DNA of 64,000 nt from a bacterium (GCA_021157815.1 JAGGVT010000096.1:9335-73334), one strand, 5' to 3'. Numbered from the stretch's first letter, positions 1-64,000 are shown. The notes: a model not told the origin generated them from the sequence alone. Made by a program: numbers and translations.

Positions 1-2
1 CG

Positions 3-926
3 GGCAATTGCGGTGAGCCGTACGAAATCTGCAATTTTTATCAGGATCCCCTGTATGATACAGTCGGCGCATCGGCAAATATCGCGATTACTGTTCGCGA
101 CTGGCAGAGCGATACAGACGCGGTTAATCTATATTGTCCTGAGATCACAGGCGTAACGCTTGTACCATTTACTCAGATTGATACTGAAACATGGGAAATG
201 GACCTGGTAAACGAAACCGGCGCATCAGAAGGCGATTATACCGGTTTCATTCTCGCAACATCAGCAAACTCCGGAACGCTTACACTATATGATGAAATTA
301 CAATAACTGTTACAAGCAGCGGATGCACCGAGCAAGAACTATACTATGATTTCATCGGCTGCGGTGACCCAATCGATTTCGTTTTTGAATGCCAGGGATG
401 GGTAGCCGGCGGATGCGGCCTGCCAAATTCATCCAATACTATGGGATGTTTCAAGTGGGGATGCGATGTCGGCAATCCCTGCGGAATGACTCATCCATAC
501 CTGACAACAGGCGGCGGTGAGATGATGGGATCAGACCCAAGCTGTGATTATATATTTTCACACGGCACTGCCGCGGATTTCAATGTAGTCAGCCCGCCAA
601 TCAACCTGCCAATATCTGACTATAGCGCCATCGAATTCAACCACTGCAACGATTTAACGGCTGGCGCAACTTTCTATGTTTATGTCTCAGAAAATGGATG
701 CACGGGCCCGTGGACTGAATTGTGGCTCTCAACCTCAAATGGCTGTTTTGAAAATACGTCGGTTGATATTTCAGATTATTCCGGGACAGATGTAATGTTC
801 CGATTCAGGTATGAATCGCTAAATTATACTGTTGGCACATCCGGTTTATGCGGCGATAACGCAGGCGTTGTAATCGACAATATCAGTATCAATGGATGTT
901 TCATAGGCACGCTTGAAGAGAATTAA
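3..926 (+). CDS. 5'-truncated member of the surface-lipoprotein family; C-terminal Cys-rich domain
   Basis: The frame is open from position 3 with no stop before the listed Met at 198. The upstream translation contains ITVRDWQSDTDAV, matching the family DWQQN motif. The C-terminal 240 aa is Cys/Gly-rich (GCG, CG, GC pairs). A terminator follows. Confidence 0.6.
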   Translation, partial: GNCGEPYEICNFYQDPLYDTVGASANIAITVRDWQSDTDAVNLYCPEITGVTLVPFTQIDTETWEMDLVNETGASEGDYTGFILATSANSGTLTLYDEITITVTSSGCTEQELYYDFIGCGDPIDFVFECQGWVAGGCGLPNSSNTMGCFKWGCDVGNPCGMTHPYLTTGGGEMMGSDPSCDYIFSHGTAADFNVVSPPINLPISDYSAIEFNHCNDLTAGATFYVYVSENGCTGPWTELWLSTSNGCFENTSVDISDYSGTDVMFRFRYESLNYTVGTSGLCGDNAGVVIDNISINGCFIGTLEEN

Positions 927-952
927 ACAATTCAATCTATATGACACTAACC

Positions 953-989
953 AAGCCCGGCTTGTTACATGCAAGCCGGGTTTTTTATT
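953..989 (+). terminator. rho-independent terminator
   Basis: aagcccggcttg..caagccgggtt stem followed by TTTTTTATTT, immediately after the stop at 926. Confidence 0.6.
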
Positions 990-1178
990 TCGTGGCGACC
1001 TCGTCCCGGGATACTGCCATTATTCAATATTCATGCCATTTGACACCGGTAACTGCCAGTATTTACTTTGTCATGTTTGTTTTCTTTAATGTATAGTGCT
1101 ATAATTTTTGTGATATACAGGGGTGCGATAGGTCTTCTTGTTTGTCTCCAAATCTCTTAGGAATTAAGGAGTTAACGA

Positions 1179-4100
1179 TGCAAAACTCCATTCGTTTTTT
1201 TATAACAGCAATGGTCATTACAGCCCTGCTTTTTGGTTGTTCAAGCGGTGGGAAAAATCCGGTAATGCCGCGTGATCCCGGTGACGGCAATGCAACCCCG
1301 GAACTACCGCTAGTCAGTGACACCCTTGATGATGTATTGAATCCTGAAAGGAATTTTGATGATCTCCCTGCTGCGGAATTGGGTACAATTCGAAACACAT
1401 TCAACGCTCTAGGCACAATGGGCGCGTACGAGTTATCACTGGACGCTGATTCCATGTCCGCTGAGCTTATTTCAATTCGTACAGCATCGCTTGGTGAGAG
1501 CTTTCTTGTATCAGGCGCCAGTTTCTTCACAGTCCGACCATGCATCGACTGCCTGAGAATTGAATCAATCGAATTGACTCCTGAAAATACAATCCTTGTT
1601 CAATTCGCCGTCAGGCATCCTTTTGAAAAAGGCGTTAAGACCGAACCGGCATCAGCGCTGAATCGTCTTGATCTGGATGTTTTCGACCTGGCGATTGTCA
1701 TAGTGCCATACAGCGCGAGTTACAAATCCTTCCCTCTTCTTGATGTCAACGCATATTCGAAACTATGCCAGAATGTTGACGGTTTCACCAGGGAACTCGC
1801 GGATTTAACTCACAACCCGCATGCCTGCCCCTATTATCTTGTTGTTGACGAGTCTGGTTTGGATGAGCACGACTACAACAGATTCGAAATGGGCACAACG
1901 GATGTACTGGTTCCGGCTTATTTCGCGGCAAATGGCAAGTTCAGGATTTACCTGACAATGGGTTACGGCGCGAGCGCTGATTTCACAACACGGCTTAGCC
2001 CGGTCTATTACAACCCTGAGTTCAACCGCAAATCCGCGTGGAAAGTCGAAGTAATTCCGCCTGAGGGCGAAAACCCTCCCGCATTAGGCAACACGTGGAA
2101 TGAGATTGATACATCAACGACTTACGACGTTACAATAAAAGTATATGACTGGCAGCAAAACGCGACAGTGGCGACCAAATATCCTGATTATGAAAACCGT
2201 GACCATATCTATGCTTCATCAAAAGTCAAACGCGTTACAGCTGAAGTTATGAATATGACAAATGATTTGAGATGGGAGTACACACCGGTAAGCGGCGATG
2301 GTTCCCCTCTTGACCCGTTGATTTACAAAGTGAAAATAGCAAATGAAAAAGGGCTTTCAGCCGGAGAACATTTCGGGCTTGTCAAAGTAAGCGATGAACG
2401 GCATCCGGCGTTAGCCGCCGATGTCGGTACGATTGACTCTCTGGTGCACAGTCCTGATGGAGGTACGCTGTATTGGAACACGATACCTGAATTCGCGACA
2501 TATCAGATTTTCACAGCGACTGTTGTTCCCGGTGACGGCATCACTGTCATACATCCAAACGGCGGTGAAACATGGGGGATTAGCTCATCGCAGACAGTAA
2601 CATGGTCATCGACGGGTACAATCGCAAATGTGAACATCGAACTTTCTCTGGACAGCGGCAGCAATTTCACAGTTCCAATCGCCAATACCGTTCCGAATAC
2701 AGGTTCATTTATCTATAATCCTGTTGGGAATTTCCCCACTGAAAATGCGAGAGTAAGGATTTACAATTCGCTCGACGCTACCATCGTTGATGAATCGGAC
2801 AACGATTTCACAATAGAGGATATCCAGGGGCCAATTCAGGTAATCACGCCAAACGGCGGCGAAATCTGGGCTAAAAACACCCAGCAGAATATTACATGGA
2901 CTGCCGATGCTGATATTACCTATGTCAGGATTTATCTGTCCATGGATTCCGGCCTGAGTTACACAATTCCAATCACCGGTTCAACGCAAAACGATGGAAT
3001 CCATCAGTGGAACATACCGGAAGAAGCCATTGGAATTAATAACAGAATTAAAGTGCAAAAACTCACAGATCCGTTGATTTTCGATGAAAGCGACGCTGAT
3101 TTTCAGGTTGTTTGCCCGGTACTTAATCCGCCAGCGAGTGTTACAGCCTCCGATGGCACATATAATGACAAAGTCTCCGTTTACTGGGATGAAGTCGCAG
3201 GAGCATCCGGATATGATATCTACCGCGATAATGTACTGCAGGTTGCCAATCATCCTGCATTATCATGGGAGGATGTCGCTGTTGTTCCCGGAACCATTTA
3301 CAATTATCAGATTGCATCAATAAACTCCTGCGGAGCCGGCCTAAAGGGGCCCGCCGACCCGGGTGAACCCGGAAATGCGTGTGTTTTACCCACATCGCCA
3401 ACCGGAGTAAGCGCGACTGATGGCAATTTCCCCGATAAGGTAACAGTTACCTGGAACGCCGTGGCAGGTGTAACCGGATACAACATCTACCGCGATTCCA
3501 TTTTGCAGCAGGGCAATTACACATTGCTTACATGGGATGACACATCAGTAACTCCGGGAGTGATATACAACTACCAGGTTGAAGCGTTTAACGGTTGCGG
3601 AACAAGCGCCAAATCTCCCGCCGACCCGGGCGAGTCCGGACATGCGTGTGTTCTGCCGGATTTCCCAACCGGTGTGGACGCGACTGATGACGCTTTTCCC
3701 GACAGGGTTACCGTTTCATGGAACGTTGTGATAGGCGCGACCGGTTACGATATCTACCGCGACAGCGGACTTGTGCAGGATGATTTCGTTGGATTAACAT
3801 GGGATGACATGACTGTAGTTCCGGGAACAGTTTATTACTACCAGGTTGAAGCTGTGAATACCTGCGGTAACGGGGCAATTGCTCCACCTGATCCCGGCGA
3901 ACCCGGAAACGCGTGCGTTATGCCATTACCGCCAACCGGAGTAAGCGCGACTGACGGTAATTTCCCGGACAAGGTAACTGTTTCATGGAATGCTGCAGTC
4001 GGCGCAACCGGATACAATATATACCGCGATTCTGTTGTGCAGCTGGCAAACCATCCCGGCATAACATGGGATGACATGACAGTAACTCCGGGAGTGGTTT

Positions 4101-6268
4101 ACAACTACCAGGTTGAAACAGTTAACGGCTGCGGAACAAGCGCCCTGGCTCCCGTTGCCCCCGGTGAACCCGGCAATGCGTGCGTTCTCCCTGTCGCACC
4201 GGCGTGGATTACAGCATCGGATGGCACTTTCACAGACAGAATTCAAATCGACTGGGCGCTTGTTGCGGGAGCGACAGGATATAATATCTATAGGGATTTG
4301 AATCCGGTGCCTGTCGCAACGAATGTAGCCGCTCCAACATGGGATGATTCCGCTGTAAACATCTGTGAAAATCACGATTATGAGGCTTCCGCCGTTTCAG
4401 CATGCGGCGAGGGGCCCAAATCCGCCAGCGACACGGGTTATTCAGAGGAATTCCCTGCCGCTCCGACAGGTGTGAATGCAACCGATGACGCTTTTCCTGA
4501 CAAAGTTACCGTCTCATGGAACGCGGTAACTGGAGCGACAAGTTACGACATTTACCGCGATACAATACTTGTTCAGGATGATTTTGCGGGTTTGACATGG
4601 GATGACACGACTGTAACTCCGGGAACTATTTATAATTACCAGGTTGAAGCGGTCAACGCCTGCGGCAATGGGCCTATTGCGCCGGGAGCGCCGGGCGAAC
4701 CCGGCAACGCTTGTGTTTTACCAACAGACCCAACTGGAGTCGATGCGACTGACGGCACTTTCCCGGACAAGGTAACAGTATCATGGAACGCCGTTGGGGG
4801 AGCGACTGGATATAACATCTATAGGGATAGCGGACTGGTGCAGGCTAATCACCCCGGTATTACATGGGATGACACGACAGCAGTTCCTCCTGTTGTTTAC
4901 AACTACCAGGTTGAAGCGATAAACGGCTGCGGTGTCAGCAATAAAGCTCCTGCCGACCCGGGTGAACCCGGCAATGCATGCGAACTTCCGGATACTCCAA
5001 CCGGACTTGCAGCATCAGACGGTACTCACACTGACAGAGTTCAGCTCAGTTGGACCGCCGCTGCTGGCGCGCTGTCTTACGACATCATCCGAAATTCAGG
5101 TTTCCTGATTAATGTACCGGGAATAACCCATGACGACATGACCGCCACGGCGGGAGTGATTTACACGTACGAGGTTGAAGCGGTAAACGCATGCGGCAAC
5201 AGCCCGGCTTCAGCAGCGGATACCGGTTACGCTTTCGCTTGCGCGGCTGATACAAACGATACATGTGGAACAGCTGATCAAATGTTTATGAACAATTTCG
5301 TAACGGGACACTCCGTATCAGGATGCGTTGACATGATTGATGAGGACTGGTTTTATGTGTATGCTCCTCCAAATGGAATTACAGCGGCAAGTACAATAGA
5401 CATCACAATGCCATCCGGCACGCTGGATATTGAAGTTTATGGAATCGACCCGGGCGGAACATGCCCCGGAGCGCTGATTACATCGCAAACCAACATTGGA
5501 ACAACAACAGTTAATGTTCCAGCAAGTTCGTTAAGCCTTCTCTACATTAAACTGATAGGCAACTCCGGAGAGGTCAGTTACACAATGGATTTGGATCTTG
5601 CCCCATGGATAACAAATATGCCTGTTCAGGTGTGTGTCGCGACCGATGACGGCACACCCGGCGGCAACTGGCCATACGACGGCACGAATTACCTTGATCT
5701 TGCACGACTTAACCAGATGATAACATGGGCTAATAATTTCTGGCATCAATATGGTTATAACCTCAATTGGGATGGCTCCACTGTAACAATCATGGATTGG
5801 ATCTATTACAATCTGGATAATGGCGCGGAAGTCAACGCAATGCACACCGCTTATCATACTAACAATCTGCTAACTCTCTACTGGGTCAACCAGCTTGATC
5901 CACCGCATAATACCGCGTACTGCAGGTGTTATACTCCTGAATCAGCGCATAATGTAAATAATGTCTTCACCGCCTACAGTCCGAATGTGTGGACATGGGA
6001 ATCGGTTGTTGAACATGAGAACGGTCATGCGATGGCTTATTATTTCGATGAATATCTATATAATGCCGGCGGATGCGCCTGCGGAGACAATGGCTGTCTC
6101 GGCTATGTTCCGTGGCTCTACTGGTGCGATAATGGCTGTTACAACGGCAACCTGATGTATTACCATCAGATGGGCTGGACATGGGATTTGTTTAACCTTG
6201 TTAACGGCCAATGGCAGCAGATAAATGAATTTAACTTTAACAATCCAACCAATTATCCGTGGTTCTGA
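1179..6268 (+). CDS. Giant surface lipoprotein: family N-terminal module, 2 beta-sandwich repeats, 8 tandem Fn3-like repeats, PPC domain and C-terminal HEXXH-containing region
   Basis: AGGAG RBS then ATG at 1179. Signal peptide ending in lipobox LLFGCSSGG. N-terminal motifs RPCIDC, RHPFEKG, NRLDLDVFDL, EFNRKSAWKVEV, YDWQQN are shared with paralogs. Repeats with GYNIYRD/YNYQVEA/NGCG occur 8 times. DEDWFYVY...LDIEVYG looks like a pre-peptidase C-terminal (PPC) domain. HENGH is present near the C-terminus. Confidence 0.9.
3110..5230 (+). repeat. Coding tandem repeat, about 270-285 bp period x8 (Fn3-like units), high DNA identity between units
   Basis: Repeated DNA blocks such as ccaaccggagtaagcgcgactga..ggatacaa(c/t)at(c/a)taccgcgat recur at about 3400, 3660, 3940, 4470 and 4740. 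The protein shows 8 units ending in Y(D/N)IYRD. Confidence 0.8.
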
Positions 6269-6286: not shown

Positions 6287-6883
6287 ATGAAAAAACTAAT
6301 TTATATCTCCATCATGGCATGTTTTGTAGTGGGGTTTTTCGCAATGCCGGCAAGCGCGTTAAGCCACAACGCCGAGAAATTCCTTCAGGCATGCACAGCA
6401 TTGGATTCTGTCTTCCCGCCTCGAAACTGGGATAAATACGATCTTCGGGACGCCGCGCTGGAAGTTCTCGATGAAATCGAAGACGGCACTTTCAACGCCT
6501 GGCCAACCGAGCCAACCGATTTCTGCCTCAAAACGCTCGGATACACACAATTCCCCGAGGACGTTGACAGGATTATCGCTTACGAGGATGACCTGACATA
6601 TTCAGTCCTGCGCTCATTAAAAGGATTTCCATCCGTAAAAGCGATTGAATGCCATTACAGATGGCTTGACAACGAGATTATGCCCAAGCGTGAACTGGCA
6701 TTTCAGGGTCTTGCGGATATCGATTTCAACAAGCTAAAGAAACCCGATAAGTGGCGCAGCGATGTCCTTGCAAAGCTTATAAACGCAAGGCAAAAAGAGA
6801 AAGTTGACTGGCTGATTAAGATTCTGGATAAATCAATTACAAAGGTCGAATCTTTCAAGATTAAGAAAGCGCCTAAGAAGTAG
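6287..6883 (+). CDS. hypothetical secreted protein
   Basis: GGGAGG RBS. N-terminal signal peptide MKKLIYISIMACFVVGFFAMPASALS. No recognisable domain. Confidence 0.7.
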   Translation: MKKLIYISIMACFVVGFFAMPASALSHNAEKFLQACTALDSVFPPRNWDKYDLRDAALEVLDEIEDGTFNAWPTEPTDFCLKTLGYTQFPEDVDRIIAYEDDLTYSVLRSLKGFPSVKAIECHYRWLDNEIMPKRELAFQGLADIDFNKLKKPDKWRSDVLAKLINARQKEKVDWLIKILDKSITKVESFKIKKAPKK

Positions 6884-11206: not shown

Positions 11207-11316
11207 TTATATATCCTTTATAAGTTTTTCCTTAACAATCATCCACAATTGGAATGCTATCTCACAATTCATTAATCATTTATCCTTTTCGTTCTCTCGC
11301 TACATATTAAATCCCT

Positions 11317-16807: not shown

Positions 16808-19800
16808 TTACACATGCGCTGAAGTATTATCAGCGGATAGAAGCATGTCGTATTTGTGGCGGAATTTTTCACGCCATTTCATCTGGAAAATCTTTCTCTC
16901 CAGCGTGCCAAGCACCTCTTTGCTCTTTGCGATGTGCTTATTTCCGGAATCCTCTTCACCGTGTTCGTTAAGGAAGACACCGTAACGGTAATAGAACAGC
17001 ACGATGAAAGTCCGGGGACTTTTATCTGATTTTTCATTGATTGCATTTTCAATCTGAGTATAAAGCGGTTTGGCGGAATCGATATCGCCTCTTTGCGCTA
17101 AAACCAGCGCATGCTCAAGCATAAATGCCAGTTTCAACCAGCTTCCTGCTTGAACCGTCGGAGATTCAAGCCCCTTTTTAATATTCTCTTCCGCCTTTTC
17201 CAAATCGCCAAGCCGGCTTGCAAGTTTGGCATTTATAAGATAATTGAACGGAATGCCGCGCTCGTATCCAATGTCTTTTTTTATTTCGTATGCCAGAAGG
17301 GAATAATTCTCCGCAAGTTTGTATTTACCTTGTTCCATCTGGGCAAACGCGATATTCGTCAGGGTTTCACATTCACCCTGCCTGTCGCCCAGAGCTCTGA
17401 ATACCATAAGCGCGCGTTCGTAATAATCCATCGATTCCCTGTACTCACCAAGTTCGAAAAGAACATCCGCCATTGTAACGTGCACTTTTGCCTGCACTCT
17501 TGTATCAGCAAGGCGTGCCTGGGAGGATATTATTTCTCTCAGGAGAATCATCGCCCTTTCGAATTCACCCTCCTCTGTGTAGATAATAGCCATGTTCCCA
17601 ATCGGAAGAACCTCACCCTGGATATCATCAATCTCCCTGAAAAGCCGAATGCTTCTTTCAAGCCATTCCTTTGCCAGCGGAATGTCGCCCAGTATTTTAT
17701 ATATCAATCCCATATTGTTATAGATACGCGCCATGCCCTCACGATCATTCAATGTTTCGCATATTTCACGTGATTTGCCAAGAACATCGATTGCCTTGTC
17801 AAAATCACCCTGAAAGCAGAAATTAATGCTCAGCTCCTTAAGGATAAGGGCGACTTCTCTGTCATCCCCGGTTTCCTTGAGAACGTCAAGCCCGTTTTTG
17901 AAATAATCAATGCTTGAACGGTAATCGGCAATCGACCGGTAGTATTCACCAAGAGCTTTCAACGCCTGCCCTTCGAGATGCGTATCACGAGAGAGGATAG
18001 CGCGATTATAGGCGCTATATGTATTTTCACGATAACTATCGGCATCGCCGGATTGCCTTGCCAACGCGCCTTTCAGAAGATAGAACCTGCCGAGAAGATG
18101 TTCATCCTTGCCTGTTTTATTCTCCAACGCTTTCATGCCGCACTCGCACCATTCCTCCGCCTGTGATTTCAGGTTGATTTTTTGCGCATATCGTGCCGCT
18201 TTCAGGTAATATTCCGCGACATCGGCTGTCTGTCCGGCTTTCTCAAGATGTTCCGCAATTTTGGCTGCAAGTTTCTGGTCATGATGAATATTCGAACGCA
18301 GCACTTCAGCCGCCGCGATATGTTTCTCCCTTTTCACATCATCCGGAATACTGGAATAAACAACCTTGCAAAGCATATTTGGATTGAAAGTGTACGTGTC
18401 GTCCGTTCGGACAAACACATGGTGTTCATCCGCAAGGCTTTTGACAACCTTCTCCACACTTGCAGATGATGATCCGGAAAGCGCCGCGAGATTATCGATT
18501 ATGAATTCGTTCCCGAGTATGGATGCCCACTTCAACGCGTCCTGCATGTTATCCGGAAGCATCTCCATTCTCTCCAGCATTAGAGATTGCACCGAACGCG
18601 GGTTATCCTGAACATCAATATCGGAACTCAACCTTACGGAACCTCCGTCCCTGATAATCTGTTTCTGGTTTTCCAAAGATTTCAGCATTTCAACCAGATA
18701 GAAAGGATTTCCACCCATAGTTGCGTGCAGCATTTCAGCCAGCCTGTGGGCATCCTCAGGATATTCCCATGAGTACTTTGAAAGCAGAAGTTCATGCGTT
18801 TGAGACAGATCTAAATCTCTGATTTCATAAAGCAGGTAATTGGCGCGCCTTGAGAATTCCTCCATAAGACTGCTCATATCACCTTCATTTGCCATATTGA
18901 AAGTTACAACAATCATCACAGGATATTTTGCCGTGGCTATTGAGATATCACGCAAAAGTTGCAATGACTGGGAATCAACATAGTTGACATCATCAATACA
19001 GATAATCAACTTGTGCTTGAGAGAAAGATGCTTGAATCCCGTCGCGATGAGTTTCTGGTAATTAATCTCATCCATCATCTGGGTCGGTTCCTTCACATCC
19101 CCGACATTTGGAGTGATAAGGGCAACTAACGGCGAAACAAGCAAAGGTATTTCAGGGAACATATCGGTAAGGAAATTCTTGTAATGCTCAACTTCGCTAT
19201 CCCCGAGGTATGATCGCCACAATCGTTTTGTCGTTTCAAATGGGCGGTTTTTATCTCCCGGATACGCGGTTGTTCTCATGATGCAGATATCGCTTTCATC
19301 AGCCGCGATTTGTTGAAGCAATTCCAGGCTCCATCGCGATTTCCCAAGTCCGGTATCCGCTTTCAATGCGAGAATCCTGCCTAATCCCTCATCCAGCCCG
19401 TTTTTCAGCCAACGCTTTAGTTCATCAATTTCATCAGCGCCGACCAACACTATGTCATTGCTGTTTTTAAAATTTTTCAGATACTGCACCACATCCTGCC
19501 CGGCTGGTTGGTCCTTGCCTCTCGACTGGAACCATTCCACGCCAAGGAAGAATTTACGCTCCAGCTCCTCCGCTTTCACAAGCAGATCGTTCAGTTCATC
19601 GAGTGTTGGTGGATGCGGAGCGGCGATCTCATCCGCGAGATTCCCTACATCACTCAGGAACAAAGAGACATTATCATCATCGCTTCTTTCCTGCTCCTTG
19701 AAAGCGTCGATTATTTGCCACAAAACCTTGCCGACACTCTTTCTATCACGTTTGAAATCCGCTTCCGATGAAATCAGGTTGGCAAGTCCGAAATCGATTA

Positions 19801-20323
19801 CTTTCATGAGGTGGCGCGATGTTGAAACGTCATCGTACATCACGTTCTTCACATGCAAATCGCCATGAATCAGATTGTTGCGTTTCAATGCAATCAGCAC
19901 ATGAAGAAGCTGAATGATTGTTACGATTATCATGCGGCCATCTATCGGCTGTTTCTCTTCAATGTACTCCTGCAGCGTTTTGCCATATACGCGTTCCCAG
20001 ACAATGAAAGGGACGAACACTTTTTCACCGTCTATTTCACAATTTTCCTCGCCGAAATCTGTAACGGAAGCAATGTACGGGCACCCGCGCACCTTCATCG
20101 CGCGTTTTGCCTCCTGAACCCACTCGGGACCCAGAGGAATTTTAACTCCGCCTATCTCAGTGTTAATAACCTTGACAACAACCTCTCCCTCGAGAAGTTC
20201 ATCGTAGGCCAGATAGGCTCGAGCCATTAAACCATGGCCGATTTCCTCAAGAAGCACATAACGCTCCTTGATTTTTAAACCGGCAAGATTAGTCGCACTT
20301 TCTGTCGTATCAGTTATCTGCAT
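16808..20323 (-). CDS. Ser/Thr protein kinase fused to STAND-type P-loop NTPase and TPR repeats (PknK/MalT-like architecture)
   Basis: Kinase subdomains VVVKVIN, HGDLHVKNVMY, IDFGLANL. P-loop KADTGLGKS. Long C-terminal TPR-like region with repeated A..Y......Y..A pattern. Confidence 0.9.
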   Translation of the reverse strand: MQITDTTESATNLAGLKIKERYVLLEEIGHGLMARAYLAYDELLEGEVVVKVINTEIGGVKIPLGPEWVQEAKRAMKVRGCPYIASVTDFGEENCEIDGEKVFVPFIVWERVYGKTLQEYIEEKQPIDGRMIIVTIIQLLHVLIALKRNNLIHGDLHVKNVMYDDVSTSRHLMKVIDFGLANLISSEADFKRDRKSVGKVLWQIIDAFKEQERSDDDNVSLFLSDVGNLADEIAAPHPPTLDELNDLLVKAEELERKFFLGVEWFQSRGKDQPAGQDVVQYLKNFKNSNDIVLVGADEIDELKRWLKNGLDEGLGRILALKADTGLGKSRWSLELLQQIAADESDICIMRTTAYPGDKNRPFETTKRLWRSYLGDSEVEHYKNFLTDMFPEIPLLVSPLVALITPNVGDVKEPTQMMDEINYQKLIATGFKHLSLKHKLIICIDDVNYVDSQSLQLLRDISIATAKYPVMIVVTFNMANEGDMSSLMEEFSRRANYLLYEIRDLDLSQTHELLLSKYSWEYPEDAHRLAEMLHATMGGNPFYLVEMLKSLENQKQIIRDGGSVRLSSDIDVQDNPRSVQSLMLERMEMLPDNMQDALKWASILGNEFIIDNLAALSGSSSASVEKVVKSLADEHHVFVRTDDTYTFNPNMLCKVVYSSIPDDVKREKHIAAAEVLRSNIHHDQKLAAKIAEHLEKAGQTADVAEYYLKAARYAQKINLKSQAEEWCECGMKALENKTGKDEHLLGRFYLLKGALARQSGDADSYRENTYSAYNRAILSRDTHLEGQALKALGEYYRSIADYRSSIDYFKNGLDVLKETGDDREVALILKELSINFCFQGDFDKAIDVLGKSREICETLNDREGMARIYNNMGLIYKILGDIPLAKEWLERSIRLFREIDDIQGEVLPIGNMAIIYTEEGEFERAMILLREIISSQARLADTRVQAKVHVTMADVLFELGEYRESMDYYERALMVFRALGDRQGECETLTNIAFAQMEQGKYKLAENYSLLAYEIKKDIGYERGIPFNYLINAKLASRLGDLEKAEENIKKGLESPTVQAGSWLKLAFMLEHALVLAQRGDIDSAKPLYTQIENAINEKSDKSPRTFIVLFYYRYGVFLNEHGEEDSGNKHIAKSKEVLGTLERKIFQMKWREKFRHKYDMLLSADNTSAHV

Positions 20324-46670: not shown

Positions 46671-46680
46671 TGTTTTTCTC

Positions 46681-49233
46681 CTAGTTAATGATAATGAACC
46701 CATCTTGCATGTTAACTTTTTCCTGTTCGCCATTGATTATAACCTTGTTCACACTACCAGCAACTATCTTGACACCTGATAAATCGGATTCGCTTGTTAT
46801 GCTCATTTTGGCTCCATTAACACTTATTTCAAGCGCTTCAATTGCTGCAGGAGCTGAGAATATAAGGATATCATCAATCATTAGATAATCGGCATTAAGT
46901 AGAAGAAAGACTGTTTCGGATTTTTCAATGTCACTAAGAAGCGCGATATCGCCGCGGAATTCATAATCGCCGAATTTAACTTTCTTTGTTGCATCGCCGG
47001 ATTCCATGAAAATATCTTTTCGGTTTGAGAATGATATTTCATAACCAACATTCTGCCTGCTGACACGGTCAGCGAAATCCGTTTCAAGCGGCGTGATTTC
47101 AATTTCAGGCGCGACTTTTCCCTCGTAAGGAACAAGCAAAACCTGATACTGCTTGAACGCCAATCCCTCCTGATGCAGGGAAATGTAAGGAGTTTCTACC
47201 ATTCCATCCGTTGTTGACATCGGGCCTTTGCTTTTATTAACGACAATGTCCTCATGGTTAAGGGGGACAAGCGCGATATTGGCGTCAGGATTCAGCGTAT
47301 CAATACGCTTTGTTTTACTGTCAATATTAAGTTGAGTCGGCTGGAAATGCGCAAGCCAGTCGAATTCATGATATCCGCTGGTCTGGAAACTGGTTCCGTA
47401 ATAGGACGGTCCCGGCAGGAAATCCGTGATAATCCAATAGTCGGGTTTTGAAAAAATTACTCGACGGTTATGCTGAACGCCAATCCAGCGGTAGCCATCG
47501 CTCCAAGCGTCAGTGTAATCAAAATCATCCGATGTCCACCACTGCTTCAGAGTGTTAGTCGTGCATTTGCGCATGCTTCGCGAATCAATCATGACAGTAT
47601 TATGCGCGATAGTCTGCTTGTACCATCTTTTTGATACGTCAGCCTCGTAAGAACCAGTCCTGCCACATTCAGTGCAGATTGGTTTTCCGAATGCCCAAAT
47701 ATCGAACGAGCCAAAATCGGGATGCGAATGCCACGCCTCATCCCAGCCGAAATCGAAAAACATATACGGCGATTTCTCATCCCACGATTCACGCATAACT
47801 GACCAGCCTGTGTCGGGCAGGAGAACAGAGGTAAATGACGGCTCTTCTGATTTGATTTTGTTGTATGCCGCAAGCACTTCATCAGTATTGTCAAACTGCT
47901 CGTTCGCTGTTTTGATAACATCATCGGGATATCGCTCGGCGAAATATTTCATTGCAGGGTCATTAAATTCAAGTGCGCCTTTTATAATCGCGCGTTTGGT
48001 GAAACTGCCATCCGCTCCGATACCGCTATCACCGCATGGAACATAATTTCCCGTCGGCGGAACTATCTTAACAGCCCATAAATACATGGTTTTCCACTTT
48101 CGGTAGAATTCATCGGGGATAAACATCCCGAGTTTTCGTACGAGCCTGACTACAGTGCGGTATTCATCCATAACACCGGTAGCGTAACCGACTGAGTTTT
48201 CGCAGTGAGTGCCGTCGTTATAGGTTTCCTTTACCATGTGCTGTTGCGACATTTTCCACGCGTGTTCGCACCAGAATTGCGATTTTTTAAACGATGGGAA
48301 ATAACCGCCGATTTTCATAATCCCCTCGCACTGGGCGGTCTGCCAGTTGCTGGGCATGAATACATCATTGCATATATAGAGATATTCAGCATGTTCCAGA
48401 ACTGATTTATACAAATTGAATATTTTATCTTTGCACAATTTAGGGTTATCAATCTGCGAAAGCCATCGTTCAGTTTCAGGCAGGCTTCTAGCCGGGCCTG
48501 AGGCACCAAGTGTACGCCAATATGGCATCCAGATAAAGGAGATATACGTTTTGGGCCGCTGAGCTGGCGGGCGATATGTTTCATACCAGTGGTTGTACAT
48601 TTCAAGCCACGCTTCAGCATATTTAATATCATCCGTGTGGATATACGCCCGTTCGAGATAGTACATCATTCCCCATAATGAGAAGTACATCCCCGGCCTG
48701 CAATCCGGGAATTTGGGGTCTTTCATAATCTCATCCGCTTTCTCTACAGCAGCCTCGCCTGCTTCTTTTGTAACAACCCGTTCTTTAAGCTGGTATTTTT
48801 TATCGCGCTTCGCCTGATATGACAAATACTCATCCCGCGCCTTTTGGAAATCACCAGACGTAACCGCCGCCTTAACTTTCTCAAGGCCTGGATAGTCCAG
48901 ATTAACCGCCTCGAAAAATTCCCTGTCCGACATCTCCGGCTTGGTGGGAGTATAGCCGTATTTCGCTTTCCACTTCGCCACAAATTCGTTGGTGTAGCGA
49001 TACTTGCTGAAAAGTTTTACATCCATGTTCCAGTCGGAATCGAGTTCAATCAACGGCTCATCCACGTAGGTGATTTCCGTTGGTTCAAATGGGGACAATG
49101 CCTCCGGTGGAACAGCTACAATCTGCCCGCCATCGGCATAATCCATCGTGTAGTGAACATCCTTTTCCCTTGATAGTGAAAATCCGAAGAAAATAATCGA
49201 TGCAATAAAAAGGGCTATAGCTGTTCGAGTCAT
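46681..49233 (-). CDS. heparinase II/III-like polysaccharide lyase family protein (secreted), paralog 2
   Basis: Signal peptide; WDEAWHSHPDFGSFDIWAFG; about 60% identical to paralog 1 along the full length. Confidence 0.75.
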   Translation of the reverse strand: MTRTAIALFIASIIFFGFSLSREKDVHYTMDYADGGQIVAVPPEALSPFEPTEITYVDEPLIELDSDWNMDVKLFSKYRYTNEFVAKWKAKYGYTPTKPEMSDREFFEAVNLDYPGLEKVKAAVTSGDFQKARDEYLSYQAKRDKKYQLKERVVTKEAGEAAVEKADEIMKDPKFPDCRPGMYFSLWGMMYYLERAYIHTDDIKYAEAWLEMYNHWYETYRPPAQRPKTYISFIWMPYWRTLGASGPARSLPETERWLSQIDNPKLCKDKIFNLYKSVLEHAEYLYICNDVFMPSNWQTAQCEGIMKIGGYFPSFKKSQFWCEHAWKMSQQHMVKETYNDGTHCENSVGYATGVMDEYRTVVRLVRKLGMFIPDEFYRKWKTMYLWAVKIVPPTGNYVPCGDSGIGADGSFTKRAIIKGALEFNDPAMKYFAERYPDDVIKTANEQFDNTDEVLAAYNKIKSEEPSFTSVLLPDTGWSVMRESWDEKSPYMFFDFGWDEAWHSHPDFGSFDIWAFGKPICTECGRTGSYEADVSKRWYKQTIAHNTVMIDSRSMRKCTTNTLKQWWTSDDFDYTDAWSDGYRWIGVQHNRRVIFSKPDYWIITDFLPGPSYYGTSFQTSGYHEFDWLAHFQPTQLNIDSKTKRIDTLNPDANIALVPLNHEDIVVNKSKGPMSTTDGMVETPYISLHQEGLAFKQYQVLLVPYEGKVAPEIEITPLETDFADRVSRQNVGYEISFSNRKDIFMESGDATKKVKFGDYEFRGDIALLSDIEKSETVFLLLNADYLMIDDILIFSAPAAIEALEISVNGAKMSITSESDLSGVKIVAGSVNKVIINGEQEKVNMQDGFIIIN

Positions 49234-57906: not shown

Positions 57907-57907
57907 C

Positions 57908-58016
57908 AACCTGCTAACCTGCTAACTTACTAACCTGCTAACTTACTAACCTGCTAACTTACTAACTTACTAACCTGCTAACTTACTAACTTACTAACCT
58001 GCTAACTTATTAACCT
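57908..58016. repeat. 8-bp tandem repeat (CTAACYTR)n, about 13 units, overlapping the stop codon of 58010..60520
   Basis: Same unit and same TTTTCCAAC junction as the arrays at 23.8 kb and 53.6 kb. Confidence 0.85.
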
Positions 58017-60520
58017 GTCACAAGATAACTGCCATCGGGAAGTGTGATTGTCATTTTTCCCTTGAAATCACCATTGACCGATGCGCCGTTGTTTGTAAAC
58101 TGAATCTCGACCCAGTCCATTTCATTCGAGCAATACGCAATAACCTTTCCATCGCGTTTAAGGCATGTTCCGCCGACAAGTAGAATCGAACTAACAACTC
58201 CGTCTTTTTCTCTGATTAACGCCATTTCACCATCGAAAGAGAAATCGCCGTATTTGCGAAACGCGCTTTTCTCATCAACAACGTAATAATAATCCGCCTT
58301 GAGGGATTCGAGGTAGTAATCGATTCCATCAGGCGATGTGATTTTCAAACCCTTGCATCGCCAGGCATCATCGCCCATATCGAGAGTTTCGACTTTGATA
58401 TCCGGGGCGACTGTTCCCTTGTATGGATAAATAACAACCTCGTAATCGACCGGCAAATCGCCCTCTCTTTGATAGCCGATATACGGCGCATCATCCACTT
58501 CACCATCCGGAGTAACCATCCAGCCCGTGGATTGATTAACAATGAGAGTTTCAGGATTTAACGGCACCACCAGAACATTCACATCGGGATTGTTTGTGCG
58601 AATCGCTTTCGATTTCTCATCAATTGCCAGTTCAGTCGGCTGGAAATGTGCCAGCCATTCACATTCGTGATAACCGCTGGTCTGACACATTTTTTCAGTC
58701 AGGTTGTCAGTGAGAATCCAATAGTTGGGTTTAACAAACGTAATTTTTCTACGGCTATACGCGCCAAGATATTTGTAACCATCATGGATTGCGTTTGCAT
58801 AATCGGCTGTCGATGATGTAACCCATGTATCGCAGATTCCGGATGTAATCTTGCGCTGGCTCATCCCGTTGATTGTTACAAGGTTATGCGAGATTGTTTC
58901 CTTATACCACAATTTGCACCTGTCAGTCTGATATCCGCCAGCAAGCCCGCAGTCCGTAATAAGCGGCTTGCCATAAGCGAAAATGCTGAATCCAAGGCCG
59001 TCGCGATGGCAGTGCCACGGCTCGTTTGAGCCATAATCGAAAAGCAGATAACGGGCATCCCTGCTCCAGTCGTCGCGCATTATCGCCCAGCCTGTGTCAG
59101 GCAGATTCACGGATGTATAATCCGGTTCCTTCGGTACGATTGCTTTTAATTCAGCGATAACCTCATCAGCGCCATCACCGAAAAGATCTTTTGCCCTTTC
59201 TCTTAATTTATCAGGATAATCCTTCACAAAATATTTGAACTCAGGGCATGGGAATAAAAGAGCGCCATCAATAAGATATGGAACTGCGAAATTCTCCGCT
59301 CCCATAGCACTGTCGCCGACAGGCGCCAGATTAAGAATCGGCGAATATACTTTTATTGTCCATTCCTGCGCATGTTTAAGTTTCGGCTCAAGCCAGTCGG
59401 GTTCCTCCAAACCAGCTATACGCACCAGTTTAAGAATCTTTCGAAAAAACTTTATAACAGCATTGTTATAACCTGCCGCTCTCTCGAAATAACCGCCATC
59501 GGGCATCACACCAAGATCCACGTGTTTTAGAAGGTAATTCCACGCGAAATCAATCCATTGCCGGGACTCCTTGAATTCAGGATAATTTATCCCGGCCTCA
59601 AGAAGGTTAAGCATCTGAAGAAGTTGAATATTACCGGCGCGGTATCCGGGATTGACCGACATTAAAAATTGCGCATGCTCAACAACTGATTTATACAGTA
59701 CAATCCTTTCATCAACCGGAATGTCATTGTATTCAATTCCAGTCAGAATATCATTGAAACATGAGAAAGTGTGAATTCTGTAACCCGCCAGATGGGAATC
59801 CCATGGATTGTTAATAAACGATGGTGAAAGCCAGATTTTCGGAGCGCCCTCAGGCGGTCGGACTGTCTCATACCAGAATGAAAACATATCCATCAAACCA
59901 TGGAGATATTTCATATCGCCTGTGTAACGATAAGCATAGTAAAGATGTGATAGCCAGTTCCACCACGCATCCTTTGAGCCATTGCCAAGTTTTTCCCTGT
60001 CCCACGGATGATTCGGGAAATCCGGACTATTGAGAAGCTCATCGGACCTTTCAACATAAATATTCTTTCTCGATGGATTAAGCGTGCCAGGGTCGATATG
60101 GACAATTTCAGGACGATTCTTAAAATAATCCGCAAGTTCAAATTTCGCCTTTTTGTAATCCCCCGCCTCTACTGCTGCCTTCACTGATTCAAGACCGTCA
60201 TGGCTAAGGTCAATCACCGAAAACAACTCCTCATCGGCCATGACATCCGCGACTGGATGGTAGTTGTATTTTACAAGCCATCTCTCAAGATACAGGTCAG
60301 ACAGTTTGATTTCTGAAAATGTCTTGTAGTGCAGATTGAGTTCAGCTTCCAGCTTAACTGACGGCTCATCCACAACGGTGATTGATTCATCGGATTGAGC
60401 ATACCCGGTTGTGAACATTGAAACTACACAAGCTACCAGAACAAGCATCCATGATTTCCACATATCTCCACACCTCGTATTTTGATGGCACAGTAAAATA
60501 AATAAACCCTGAAAAAACAT
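58010..60520 (-). CDS. heparinase II/III-like polysaccharide lyase family protein (secreted), paralog 3
   Basis: Signal peptide MWKSWMLVLVACVVSMFTTGYA (start probably internal, about 60463). H.H.D...F motif as SNEPWHCHRDGLGFSIFAYG. Collinear with paralogs 1 and 2. Confidence 0.75.
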   Translation of the reverse strand: MFFQGLFILLCHQNTRCGDMWKSWMLVLVACVVSMFTTGYAQSDESITVVDEPSVKLEAELNLHYKTFSEIKLSDLYLERWLVKYNYHPVADVMADEELFSVIDLSHDGLESVKAAVEAGDYKKAKFELADYFKNRPEIVHIDPGTLNPSRKNIYVERSDELLNSPDFPNHPWDREKLGNGSKDAWWNWLSHLYYAYRYTGDMKYLHGLMDMFSFWYETVRPPEGAPKIWLSPSFINNPWDSHLAGYRIHTFSCFNDILTGIEYNDIPVDERIVLYKSVVEHAQFLMSVNPGYRAGNIQLLQMLNLLEAGINYPEFKESRQWIDFAWNYLLKHVDLGVMPDGGYFERAAGYNNAVIKFFRKILKLVRIAGLEEPDWLEPKLKHAQEWTIKVYSPILNLAPVGDSAMGAENFAVPYLIDGALLFPCPEFKYFVKDYPDKLRERAKDLFGDGADEVIAELKAIVPKEPDYTSVNLPDTGWAIMRDDWSRDARYLLFDYGSNEPWHCHRDGLGFSIFAYGKPLITDCGLAGGYQTDRCKLWYKETISHNLVTINGMSQRKITSGICDTWVTSSTADYANAIHDGYKYLGAYSRRKITFVKPNYWILTDNLTEKMCQTSGYHECEWLAHFQPTELAIDEKSKAIRTNNPDVNVLVVPLNPETLIVNQSTGWMVTPDGEVDDAPYIGYQREGDLPVDYEVVIYPYKGTVAPDIKVETLDMGDDAWRCKGLKITSPDGIDYYLESLKADYYYVVDEKSAFRKYGDFSFDGEMALIREKDGVVSSILLVGGTCLKRDGKVIAYCSNEMDWVEIQFTNNGASVNGDFKGKMTITLPDGSYLVTG

Positions 60521-61604: not shown

Positions 61605-62777
61605 GTGATTGAGATGGCGTTTAAGGCAATTGACTATTACAACATTGACGAGCTGCTCGGCGATTCAGAATTGCTCATCCGGGATACTGTTCGAAGCCTG
61701 ATGGAGGATAAATACCAGCCTGCAATCGCAAAGCATTTCAACGATGGCACATGCCCGTTGGAAATCGCAAAAGACCTTGGAGAGTTAAATGCATTTGGAG
61801 TAAACCTTGAAGGTTACGGCTGCGCGGGTTCATCAGACACGGCTTATGGTTTAATCAACCAGGAGCTTGAACGGGTGGACAGTGCGCTTCGTTCGTTCAG
61901 TTCAGTTCAAACCTCCCTTTCGATGTATCCAATCCACCGGTGGGGTTCTGGCGAACAAAAGGAAAGATACCTTCCCGGCATGGCAAAGGGTGAAATAATC
62001 GGATGCTTCGGACTCACCGAACCCGACCACGGCAGCGACCCATCCGGAATGAAAACCACCGCCCAAAAAACAGATTCAGGTTACATAATAAACGGCTCCA
62101 AGATGTGGATTACCAACGGCACTATCGCTGATATCGCCGTTGTATGGGCTAAACTGGACGGTGAAATCCGCGGTTTCCTTGTTGAAAAAGGCACTGATGG
62201 ATATACAGCTCCGGAAATAAAAAACAAGTTCTCGCTGCGGGCATCTGTTACAAGCGAATTGAGTTTTCTGGATTGCGAGATTCCCAAAGAGAATATCCTT
62301 CCTGATGCCGTAGGGCTGAAAGCGCCGCTGTCATGCCTGACACAGGCTCGATACGGAATCGCATGGGGGGTAATCGGCGCCGCTATGGCTTGTTTCGATG
62401 AAGCTTTGCAATACGCGCAGGAGAGAATTCAATTCGGGAAACCGATTGCCGCGTTTCAATTACAGCAGGAAAAATTCGCATACATGGCGACTGAAATCAC
62501 AAAGATGCAGCTTTTATGCCTCAGGCTGGGGCAACTCAAGGATGCGGGAAAAGCAACCCACACGCAGGTTTCGATGGCGAAACGTAACAATGTCGCTGAA
62601 GCGCTGAAAATCGCAGGGATGGCTCGTGGAATTCTCGGCGCGGCTGGAATTGTCGATGAATACTCCGCAATGCGCCACGCTTGCAATCTTGAATCGGTTT
62701 ACACCTACGAGGGAACTCACGATATCCATACGCTCATCCTCGGCCATGATATAACCGGCTTCAAGGCATACAGGTAA
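61605..62777 (+). CDS. acyl-CoA dehydrogenase (glutaryl-CoA dehydrogenase-like)
   Basis: GCFGLTEPDHGSDPSGMKT, SKMWITNG, YEGTHDIHTLILG; start may be MAFKAIDYY (61614). Confidence 0.9.
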   Translation: MIEMAFKAIDYYNIDELLGDSELLIRDTVRSLMEDKYQPAIAKHFNDGTCPLEIAKDLGELNAFGVNLEGYGCAGSSDTAYGLINQELERVDSALRSFSSVQTSLSMYPIHRWGSGEQKERYLPGMAKGEIIGCFGLTEPDHGSDPSGMKTTAQKTDSGYIINGSKMWITNGTIADIAVVWAKLDGEIRGFLVEKGTDGYTAPEIKNKFSLRASVTSELSFLDCEIPKENILPDAVGLKAPLSCLTQARYGIAWGVIGAAMACFDEALQYAQERIQFGKPIAAFQLQQEKFAYMATEITKMQLLCLRLGQLKDAGKATHTQVSMAKRNNVAEALKIAGMARGILGAAGIVDEYSAMRHACNLESVYTYEGTHDIHTLILGHDITGFKAYR

Positions 62778-62977
62778 TTTGACTTTCTCGATGGTTTTTG
62801 CTATATAACATATAACTTGTGGATGCAAGGGAAGATGGTTAAAGTCCATCGCGGTCCAGCCACTGTGTTGGGCACATTATTGAAGTCCAGATAATTGCCC
62901 TAAGCCAGAAAACCAATTCACAGGTTGAATGTACAGCTTCTTGGATTGGGCTTCGCATTCATTGGATATTCTCCTTT

Positions 62978-63015
62978 GATGCACCACCCCTGGAAGCGGG
63001 TGGTTTTCTTTTCCA
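62978..63015 (+). terminator. putative rho-independent terminator
   Basis: ccacccctggaagcgggtgg hairpin followed by TTTTCTTTTCC. Confidence 0.45.
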
Positions 63016-63054
63016 CCCACTTCTTACCTAATTAATATTTTGGAGGCGCACAAA

Positions 63055-63999
63055 ATGCGCTATTTATGTATTTTTATCACCATGATGATTTTCATCATGC
63101 TTTTTGCCGCCGGTTGTTCGAGAGATGCAAATCCGCTTGTCCCTTTACAAAATCAAGCGGATTCCGATTTAATGCCTGTTGTCAGATATGATAACATCAG
63201 CGCCACTGGTTTGTTCGGCGTGTACTGTTTATCAATCTCGCCTGATTTTGCATCCACTGAATTGGTTCCGATGCGCAATTCCGCTATTGGAGAATCCTAC
63301 ATCGTTTCTGGCGCGGGTTTCTTCACAGTTTCACCGTGCGTTGATTGCTTGAAAATCAAGAGCATCGCATTGGATGAAAATGGGAATGCCGTTCTTGAAT
63401 TTAAAGTGAAACATCCGTTTGAGAAAGGCGACCCTCTCAAGCCGCCAACCGCGGTGAATCGTCTCGATTTGGATGTTTTCGACCTTGCGCTTGTTATCAA
63501 GCCAATTGAAATCACGCCTGATATCTATACACAAACGGATATCAGCGCCTACACGGGCATAATGAAAAACGCGGACGGCTTCACATGCGAACTGAGCGAT
63601 GTTGTGGATGATGACGTTGTAATGCCGTACAAAATATGCTATGAGGATGAAAATAACAACCGTTTTGAAATGGGCACTGACTATCAGTTATTTGATGTCA
63701 TCCTGTCGCCCGGTTCAGGTTTGTTGTTTGATGTCTATCTAACGATGGGTTACGGCGCGAGCGCGAAAAAACCTGAAAGGCTCGTTCCGACATATTATGT
63801 GCCGGAGTTCAACAGGAAAGCAGCATGGAAAGTGGAGGTTATTCCCCCTGAGGGAGATAATCCGCCGGAGATCGGCAACACCTGGGATGATGTCGAAACA
63901 ACCGTTGAATACACGGTAACTGTTGATATTTATGATTGGAATCATGGCGCAGTAATCGCGACAGATTTCCCTGATTCCGACAATACAAATCACATTTAC
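63055..63999 (+). CDS. 3'-truncated member of the surface-lipoprotein family, closest paralog of 1179..6268
   Basis: GGAGG RBS. Lipobox FAAGCSRD. SPCVDCLKIKS, KHPFEKGD, NRLDLDVFDLALVI, EFNRKAAWKVEVIPPEGDNPPEIGNTW, YDWNHG. Runs off the window end. Confidence 0.8.
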   Translation, partial: MRYLCIFITMMIFIMLFAAGCSRDANPLVPLQNQADSDLMPVVRYDNISATGLFGVYCLSISPDFASTELVPMRNSAIGESYIVSGAGFFTVSPCVDCLKIKSIALDENGNAVLEFKVKHPFEKGDPLKPPTAVNRLDLDVFDLALVIKPIEITPDIYTQTDISAYTGIMKNADGFTCELSDVVDDDVVMPYKICYEDENNNRFEMGTDYQLFDVILSPGSGLLFDVYLTMGYGASAKKPERLVPTYYVPEFNRKAAWKVEVIPPEGDNPPEIGNTWDDVETTVEYTVTVDIYDWNHGAVIATDFPDSDNTNHIY

Positions 64000-64000
64000 G

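Follow-up and report, generated by a model that had tools for sequence, protein, structure and literature searches.

The stretch of bacterial DNA analysed here, a window of 64,000 nucleotides (64 kb), encodes seven predicted lipoproteins of a single family, whose genes together take up 27% of its length, a density far beyond chance. The family is defined by a previously undescribed N-terminal module, which no described domain family covers and which is followed by C-terminal domains (heads) of unrelated kinds. We read the module as a lipid-anchored pedestal, perhaps stabilised by metal, on which interchangeable heads are displayed as an arsenal for nutrient capture, and we regard this reading as about evenly poised between right and wrong. 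The seven ORFs listed in the initial annotation all exist, with the start of B corrected to an ATG at 1178 (the earlier coordinate, 1179, being one base out of frame), and searches of the whole 64 kb with profiles of the two forms of the module, main-type and D-type, revealed no further hidden members. The seven genes are:

3..926, plus strand: member A, its 5' end cut off at the window boundary; C-terminal ~108 aa of a D-type N-terminal module (3..~326), then a Cys-rich head
1178..6268, plus strand: member B, 1696 aa; lipobox LFGCS; main-type module ~1244..2692, then repeats and a HENGH region
20744..23365, minus strand: member C, 873 aa; lipobox VWSCS; main-type module ~21938..23251; putative BNR-like propeller head
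23914..25971, minus strand: member D, 685 aa; lipobox LYGCS; short D-type module ~25057..25971; clostripain-like C11 peptidase head
30597..33443, plus strand: member E, 948 aa; lipobox LIGCS; main-type module ~30657..32126; PKD domain; probable BNR propeller
33753..36569, plus strand: member F, 938 aa; lipobox IIGCS; main-type module ~33813..35273; linker; probable BNR propeller
63055..64000, plus strand: member G, its 3' end cut off at the window boundary; lipobox AAGCS; main-type module; head outside the window

Members B, C, E, F and G have in common a collinear N-terminal module (the main type) that extends ~430 aa past the lipobox; this exceeds the ~330 aa first estimated and includes a second, Ig-like sub-domain. 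All-against-all BLASTP among the five gives E values of 1e-26 to 1e-85 over ~300–500 aligned residues, and a module-derived profile scores them at 270–676 bits (270 for G, 413 for C); E and F are 45% identical over their full length (BLASTP), and G is 43% identical to B. The motifs PCxDC, [RK]HPF, NRxDL[HD][VI]F[ND] and P[EQ][FH]N[RK]KxA come in constant order and at near-constant spacing, HPF lying 25 and NRxDL 40–41 residues past PCxDC. Such a collinear series had been attributed to all seven ORFs; it holds for these five and not for A and D, which carry a divergent sister module, and two motifs then proposed as shared have to be given up, DWQQN occurring only in B and C and IHPY not being conserved in B and G. 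Among 72 paralogues whose identity is otherwise 28–86%, ~17 residues do not vary, most of them polar and situated in predicted loops; those invariant in the main type include (F numbering) C104, C107, H129, R145, D147 and R282. The sister module of A and D (the D-type) is shorter, ~300 aa, lacks the PCxDC, HPF and NRxDL motifs, and is present in 17 copies in related loci. A and D have ~106 aa in common (BLASTP, E 1e-20), and A matches the D-type jackhmmer profile at positions 198–305. Aligned with hhalign, the two types give a probability of 99.4% (E 2.9e-21) over 307 collinear columns; on this comparison the two are divergent homologues, the D-type being found at the same position in the protein without the main-type Cys, His, Asp and Arg invariants.

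Proteins were called lipoproteins when an N-terminal hydrophobic signal peptide ended in [LVI][ASTVI][GAS]-C. A lipobox of consensus [LI][IAT]G-C-S was present in all 77 main-type and all 16 D-type sequences examined, with Gly at position -1 in 78 of the 93 and Ser at position +1 in 88. Next to the module, and common to both types, lies a conserved tether, C-S-[SG]-G-x-[NS]-P-x-x-P, and the domain order is always tether, then directly the module, then the head. A lipobox and tether of similar character also occur in window lipoproteins that do not carry the module.

The module does not map to any described domain, which agrees with the earlier failure to assign it. It had no match in Pfam and NCBIfam at E<=0.01–0.1; 72 modules compared with Pfam at E<=10 returned only sub-threshold motif matches; the precomputed Pfam annotation over the module is empty in 69 homologues; and sequence-profile and fold searches of the PDB found nothing that covers it. 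A literature search found no paper on the family or on the source MAG. AlphaFold2 models of F (residues 20–475, pLDDT 81.7; residues 56–300, pLDDT 86.6) are confident and show an all-beta module in two parts. The first (D1, ~245 aa) is an elaborated beta-sandwich and contains the PCxDC...HPF...NRxDL...RxxPxYxxPxFNxKxA residues, and the second, D2 (F ~300–455), is an Ig-like sandwich of seven to eight strands with the motif DPLxYxxxIxN...GxYxGLVKVxD. In fold searches the models are similar to nothing but generic sandwiches, to CBMs and to Ig-like domains. D2 is similar to Ig-like or CARDB-type domains, the best Foldseek sub-matches being the CARDB domain 3idu (prob 0.97, target TM 0.50); however, Foldseek gives this an E value no better than 0.02, CARDB is not matched in Pfam, and the likeness concerns about a quarter of the module. 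The envelope proteins VP37, VP26, VP28 and VP24 of white spot syndrome virus, which are beta-barrels anchored N-terminally in the membrane, were compared as a known system, and a search of viral contigs for a viral origin found no relative.

Behind the module the heads are highly diverse, as had been proposed for the C-terminal domains: 86 heads fall into 34 clusters, six of which occur behind both main-type and D-type modules. Most are beta-propellers of at least six kinds (BNR, Kelch/NanM, PQQ/BamB-like, SBBP, FG-GAP and LVIVD), and others are beta-helix, PKD, C11 peptidase, HExxH and MtrC-like multihaem cytochrome domains; the propellers, beta-helix, C11 peptidase and cytochrome are types typical of extracytoplasmic binding and degradation. 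In the window, the C11 peptidase noted at first lies in D, which matches Peptidase_C11 (Pfam PF03415, 109.7 bits against a cutoff of 25.8, residues 313–596). After its module B has two ~90-aa repeats, eight Fn3-like repeats (YxIYRD) and a C-terminal region with one HENGH motif, so that the Fn3 and HEXXH elements of the initial description stand and the PPC domain was not detected. PKD plus BNR had been assigned to three members; BNR_2 is just over its cutoff of 31.4 bits in E (32.7 bits) and F (32.1 bits), PKD is matched in E only, and C stays under the cutoff at 20.3 bits. The Cys-rich tail noted at first is found in A; it resembles choice-of-anchor J weakly (24.4 bits, under the cutoff of 30), and a main-type paralogue (L037:9890-12133) has a head with 51% identity to it. 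E is 91% identical to L001:1362-4211, and B shares 50% identity in the module and 48% in the C-terminal region with the orthologue-like L023:6809-9658. Between orthologues (two pairs) the module is 92–93% and the head 89–92% identical, equal rates which indicate that both are under ordinary purifying selection; an arms race in which heads evolve faster than the module was not seen in these pairs. Three secreted heparinase II/III-like proteins are also encoded in the window.

The initial impression of a lineage-specific and unusually dense family is borne out on a larger scale. In one related MAG there are 90 or more distinct members, most of them arranged in tandem. At E<=1e-30 the matches amount to 466 cluster representatives, of which the named ones are all "hypothetical" proteins of unclassified bacteria. 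The family was found only in unclassified uncultured bacteria, the source labels of homologues being "bacterium", plus one "Zixibacteria" and one "Nanoarchaeota" MAG (probably mis-binned). GltX of a contig of the same lineage is 63–69% identical to its closest relatives, after which identity drops to 48% or less, and the named matches at ~40% belong to mixed phyla. A 198-aa ORF in two related loci (L046/L047), considered as a recurrent gene upstream of a member, was rejected as such, since it belongs to a family member broken by a frameshift, of which it is the N-terminal part.

According to the pedestal reading, acylation would take place at the Cys of the [LI]xG-C-S lipobox, and the Ser/Gly/Pro-rich tether and then the module would follow as a common membrane-proximal pedestal keeping interchangeable C-terminal heads clear of the membrane on its extracytoplasmic side, probably at the surface of the cell, where the heads together may form a large repertoire for nutrient capture and degradation. 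Support comes from the lipobox in 93 of 93 sequences together with the fixed order of tether, module and head and the shuffling of heads between module types, from B, in which the module is joined to eight further Fn3 repeats, and from all-beta models whose likeness is only to generic sandwiches, CBMs and Ig-like domains. The D-type relatives, which hold the same position without the Cys, His, Asp and Arg invariants, speak against catalysis as the function common to the family. The same SBBP propeller head also stands behind an Fn3-repeat N-terminus (L041:12466-15231), so that the module can be exchanged for a classic spacer. The head types, the heparinase II/III-like proteins, the riboswitch of G (see below) and the B12-dependent radical-SAM enzymes encoded in a related genome are also in favour of this reading. 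What counts against a pedestal is that ~17 invariants are more than a passive spacer needs and indicate a specific ligand, metal or partner. Those in the loops (Cys-x2-Cys, His, Asp, Arg) would most likely serve as a structural metal or disulfide site, as a docking surface common to the family, or as both.

Two kinds of known system bear comparison. SLH domains are ~55 aa long, occur in three copies, are helical and bind a pyruvylated cell-wall polymer. As with SLH and similar display modules, one terminal module is here common to dozens of unrelated extracytoplasmic proteins per genome; the present family, however, is predicted to be lipid-anchored with an all-beta module, and Pfam scans gave no SLH match. 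DUF1735 and BACON have been proposed as membrane-bound spacers that project a functional domain from the cell surface (PMC11216935). In the surface lipoproteins of Bacteroidota polysaccharide utilisation loci these domains likewise follow the lipobox, form a beta-sandwich, are fused to many unrelated domains and occur in many copies per genome. The module differs in giving no hmmscan match to them even at E<=10, in being four to five times larger (~430 aa, two sub-domains) with conserved polar and Cys motifs, and in belonging to an unclassified lineage and not to Bacteroidota, with no SusC/SusD-like neighbours seen.

A tentative alternative, which we place on the improbable side, is that the module may be an anchoring or docking domain whose invariant loops bind a shared partner and provide, functionally like SLH and other modules that bind the cell wall, a second and specific attachment that reinforces the lipid anchor. 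Possible partners, suggested with the same reserve, are peptidoglycan, LPS, an S-layer glycan, an outer-membrane protein or the module itself, the last giving a coat or lattice. A fuller version, in which a metal-stabilised lipid-anchored beta-sandwich docks to an envelope component or to itself and gathers ~100 different heads of propeller, enzyme and cytochrome type in one coat, seems to us rather doubtful; if true, it would be a lineage-wide surface architecture not recognised before, an independently evolved counterpart of the Bacteroidota nutrient-capture systems in a deep-branching uncultured phylum, and would include a B12-regulated member.

We consider it distinctly unlikely that the module serves to direct sorting or export and is read by lineage-specific machinery, in a role like Slam-dependent or Bacteroidota LES-dependent export. 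Its strictly N-terminal place, adjoining a tether common to both module types, and its confinement to one lineage would fit such a role; known export signals, however, are short peptides or C-terminal barrels and not 430-aa N-terminal domains, the same kind of head is carried by lipoproteins with an Fn3 N-terminus, and the other window lipoproteins with similar lipobox and tether do without the module. Nor does a dedicated transporter gene recur near members: clustering of 317 non-family ORFs from 46 loci and the window revealed no conserved partner or secretion gene and no ORF family in more than seven loci, the seven-locus family being another lipoprotein with the same SBBP head and the largest non-family ORFs miscellaneous housekeeping genes. 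The display, sorting or substrate-binding role first suggested is plausible by inference, with sorting unsupported by gene neighbourhoods. Highly improbable, finally, is that D1 is itself enzymatic, or binds a metal or a cofactor, and acts through Cys-x2-Cys, His and Asp in a common chemical step to which the heads give specificity: the invariance of C104, C107, H129, D147, R145 and R282 and the recurrent weak Pfam matches of 17 of 72 modules to Zn-dependent APOBEC-like deaminases via PCxxC speak for it, but those matches (E>=0.014, <15 bits against cutoffs of 25–27) span no more than ~20–50 residues about PCxxC, H[AV]E is missing upstream and the invariant His comes after PCxxC and not before, the predicted fold is all-beta against the alpha/beta fold of deaminases, fold searches with the module models gave no enzyme match, and D-type relatives lack all these residues. 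Homology to cytidine deaminase/APOBEC was accordingly rejected, with only PCxxC aligning and both motif order and fold wrong.

Upstream of G lie two regulatory features:

62802-62963, plus strand: cobalamin riboswitch aptamer
62983-63014, plus strand: terminator-like hairpin with a T-run, found by a terminator scan; it follows the aptamer, and the two together immediately precede G's RBS and ATG

The aptamer scores over the threshold of RF00174 (34.0 bits, gathering score 31.5; clan CL00101) and just under that of RF01482 AdoCbl (47.1 bits, E 1.6e-7, gathering score 50), and G appears from these matches to be controlled by a cobalamin riboswitch. No riboswitch was found by Rfam beside other paralogues in 42 related loci, and nhmmer gave no match in 105 loci; as a general family feature it was rejected, being a single case confined to G. 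The closest paralogues of G (63% and 55% identical) have none, and no true orthologue was recovered. There is precedent in the B12-regulated surface lipoproteins of Bacteroides (PMC6143338). Like BtuG and BtuH, G is a lipoprotein under apparent cobalamin riboswitch control, and many heads of the family are beta-propellers, as is BtuG (PMC6143338); the difference is that the head of G, like the genes downstream of it, lies outside the window, no btuB-like gene is visible within it, and the riboswitch is found at one member only.

One uncharacterised domain heads ~100 proteins per genome, or about one gene in four of the regions examined, in a host lineage without cultured or named relatives; whatever its function, it is central to the interaction of the organism with its surroundings. 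Its definition would give an annotation to hundreds of metagenome protein clusters now called "hypothetical", and it is a possible marker for the lineage and its surface proteome. The riboswitch-controlled G offers a testable entry to function, through B12-dependent expression and B12 binding, and the module itself is a natural scaffold that tolerates many fused heads.

Seven open reading frames (ORFs) had been assigned to one lipoprotein family in the initial annotation. All seven are present in the window, and the observation is real, and stronger than the sequence alone could reveal. The ORFs hold as listed except for the start of B, which had been put one base out of frame at 1179 and is here set at the ATG at 1178. 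Members A and G are truncated by the window ends. The members and their variable C-terminal parts, hereafter heads, are as follows.

A, 3..926: Cys-rich tail, choice-of-anchor-J-like
B, 1178..6268: eight Fn3-like repeats and a HENGH region
C, 20744..23365: BNR-like propellers
D, 23914..25971: C11 peptidase
E, 30597..33443: BNR propellers and PKD
F, 33753..36569: BNR propellers
G, 63055..end: shared N-terminal module

The N-terminal regions of B, C, E, F, and G are homologous in all-against-all BLASTP (approximately 300–500 aligned residues, E-values of 1e-26 down to 1e-85). Over their full length E and F are 45% identical, and the profile of this main-type module scores 270–676 bits against the five. 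The motif series described earlier is indeed collinear in these members, with PCxDC, [RK]HPF, NRxDL[HD][VI]F[ND], and P[EQ][FH]N[RK]KxA in the same order and at nearly constant spacing. The module had been estimated at about 330 aa, but homology actually reaches approximately 430 residues past the lipobox, and a second conserved block, DPLxYxxxIxN...GxYxGLVKVxD...EFATYQxF, belongs to it. D and A do not carry the motif series that had been ascribed to them; the two align with one another over about 106 residues (BLASTP, E-value 1e-20) and define a D-type module of approximately 300 aa, with 17 copies in related loci. Profile-profile alignment with the signal peptide removed matches D-type to main-type over 307 collinear columns (99.4% probability, E-value 2.9e-21), and thus D and A are divergent homologues, as had been guessed for D. 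Neither the module HMM nor the D-type profile detected further members in the window. All complete members open with a hydrophobic signal peptide whose end reads [LI][IAT]G-C-S (77 of 77 main-type and 16 of 16 D-type sequences), followed by a tether rich in Ser, Gly, and Asn with a P-x-x-P element. Since other lipoproteins of the window that lack the module have similar lipoboxes, lipobox and tether are an organism-wide feature and not a family hallmark.

The module is undescribed by every library searched here, in agreement with the initial failure to assign it: neither Pfam nor NCBIfam matched it, precomputed Pfam annotation over the module was empty in 69 homologues, and a profile search of PDB sequences returned nothing at E ≤ 1. 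AlphaFold2 predicts, with good confidence, an all-beta structure from a 37-sequence alignment (pLDDT 81.7, pTM 0.82), and the first sub-domain alone (D1; F residues 56–300, 71 sequences) reaches a pLDDT of 86.6. Foldseek found no PDB match at E ≤ 1e-3; its top sub-matches were Ig-like and CARDB domains, aligned to the second sub-domain (D2). APOBEC-like deaminases recurred as weak matches in 17 of the 72 modules scanned singly at a permissive threshold (best E-value 0.023). Homology to deaminases is rejected, since the matches span only 20–50 residues around PCxxC, the H[AV]E motif is missing and the fold is wrong; what is retained is the hint of a possible metal-binding knuckle at PCxDC.

Among the Pfam-scanned C-terminal parts of 71 paralogues, propellers are PQQ/BamB-like (10–11), SBBP (9), BNR (5), and DUF5122 (4), alongside PKD (10) and beta-helix (5) heads and single cases of Kelch/NanM, FG-GAP, LVIVD, and a multihaem MtrC-like cytochrome. 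The Fn3, C11, and Cys-rich heads first proposed for the window stand, the BNR_2 match lies just above the cutoff in E and F and below it in C, PKD is confined to E, and the proposed PPC domain was undetected. Clustering of 86 heads gave 34 clusters, six of which are found behind both module types, and the SBBP head is also carried by a lipoprotein with an Fn3-repeat N-terminus; together these indicate repeated shuffling of modules and heads. That lipoprotein (L041:12466-15231, + strand, in a related locus) has a lipobox, four Fn3-like repeats of about 90 aa, and an SBBP propeller in the absence of the N-module. Six related ORFs occur in L005, L010, L030, L031, L042, and L046, and all seven represent a second architecture in the same genome that shares a head type with many family members. 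Module and head are equally conserved in two orthologue pairs (92–93% vs. 89–92%). The HENGH tail of B covers residues ~1600–1696 (5990..6268); the C-terminal ~430 aa contain a single HENGH and, as sole Pfam trace, a sub-threshold fn3 at the start of the stretch. This region, which is 48% identical to L023:6809-9658, could represent a zinc metallopeptidase-like head not described before.

The claim of unusual density is upheld: the seven genes, arranged as three tandem pairs and one single gene, fill 27% of the window, and the related metagenome-assembled genome (MAG) CBDURE01 holds at least 90 members. A pattern and tblastn scan of one genome per species (185,579 species), resting on one peptide pattern that divergent carriers could escape, detected the module in just two assemblies. 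The 'uncultured bacterium' MAG CBDURE01 gave 43 of the 45 loci and a 'Nanoarchaeota' MAG (JAHIRU01) the other two, L039 and L044. The latter encode typical bacterial lipobox members with at most 54% identity to F, and their contigs are probably bacterial DNA mis-binned in an archaeal MAG. The module HMM and D-type profile detect 101 distinct members in the fetched DNA (90 from CBDURE01), 63 of which have another member within 600 nt. Of the 429 non-overlapping ORFs in these regions, 112 belong to the family. Orthologues of E and F in locus L001 are 91% identical, indicating that the window comes from a close relative of CBDURE01. An exhaustive HMMER search over 1.84 billion cluster representatives returned 466 proteins at E ≤ 1e-30, a number that rose to 928 at E ≤ 1e-10; the weaker ones perhaps matched partly via heads, as the profile took in some weakly conserved C-terminal columns. 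All named matches looked up were 'hypothetical' or named for the head, from unclassified 'bacterium' MAGs. A metagenome scan with G added 58 loci and 84 further members, several on one 485-kb contig; viral contigs had no family member. The glutamyl-tRNA synthetase of a same-lineage contig has its closest relatives at 63–69% identity and the next at ≤48%, with named matches at about 40% from mixed phyla, which indicates a deep, unclassified lineage.

Other features of the window are listed below.

6287..6883, +: secreted protein, 198 aa, no Pfam match, directly downstream of B
16808..20323, −: large Ser/Thr protein kinase carrying fused TPR repeats, 1171 aa
26472..27053, −: IS200/Y1-type (REP-associated-like) tyrosine transposase homologue
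44094..46733, 46681..49233, and 58010..60520, all −: three secreted heparinase II/III-like paralogues with N- and C-terminal domains and signal peptides, one with lipobox
62802..63014, +: cobalamin riboswitch aptamer and terminator hairpin, flanked by an acyl-CoA dehydrogenase gene (61605..62777) and by G

No recurrent non-family gene adjoins the members, which have a mixed set of neighbours (tRNA synthetases, TPR proteins, T2SS/T4P ATPases, cytochromes, radical-SAM/B12-binding enzymes). Homologues of the kinase adjoin members in L009 and L027, and a 63%-identical homologue of the secreted protein (L023:6210-6821) follows B's closest relative in the same position, forming a conserved gene pair. 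Relatives of the transposase (30–59% identity) lie near members in L005, L021, L045, and L046, the last with a precomputed Y1_Tnp label; such a transposase may have a part in how the family is duplicated or shuffled. In L046 (JGI 3300056594, 193-kb contig) a member at 9448-12178 is frameshifted, giving an N-terminal ORF of 198 aa and a second ORF of 725 aa (P0055). The region is identical in L047, with the same split in two independent assemblies, and represents either a pseudogene or a programmed/slippery frameshift. The heparinase-like genes sit among genes for sugar modification (MR/MLE racemase, DegT aminotransferase), and the region resembles a cluster for the utilisation of glycosaminoglycans or uronic polysaccharides.

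The aptamer, at 62802–62963 immediately upstream of G, passes the RF00174 gathering score (34 vs. 31.5 bits) and falls just below that of the AdoCbl model (47.1 vs. 50 bits, E-value 1.6e-7). It is followed by a GC-rich hairpin with a T-run, GGAGG, and the ATG of G, and from this layout G is probably repressed by B12. A scan of 42 related loci revealed no riboswitch, and none of the sequences recovered was a true orthologue of G. In Bacteroides, corrinoid-capturing surface lipoproteins are encoded in B12-regulated loci (PMC6143338). By analogy, the riboswitch supports a putative role in nutrient capture for at least one member; this is a single case, and the head of G falls beyond the window end.

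In 72 paralogues whose identity is otherwise 28–86%, seventeen positions never vary, among them R82, C104, C107, H129, R145, D147, R282, D326, and S344 (F numbering). Most of the seventeen fall in predicted loops of D1 and D2. An invariant site of this kind might serve stability via a metal or disulfide, and/or docking. D-type modules lack most of these residues, yet occupy the identical architectural position, which favours the module as a lipid-anchored pedestal or display unit for interchangeable heads, a function we propose with roughly even confidence. A specific anchoring, docking, or coat-forming unit would suit the invariant loops; we consider it possible but doubtful. A role as export determinant would fit the constant position behind the signal peptide, and it appears improbable, as the neighbourhoods offer no local sign of a dedicated partner or export machinery. 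An enzyme or cofactor domain, to which the invariant Cys and His might point, is the least probable reading given the same D-type losses. For the pedestal or display unit, the nearest functional counterparts are the BACON and DUF1735 spacers found in surface lipoproteins of Bacteroidota (PMC11216935); the module is a member of neither family. Lipoproteins that combine a conserved N-terminal module with variable heads are an already known kind of architecture, here built on a module that is undescribed in the libraries searched and may present interchangeable heads on a lipid anchor.
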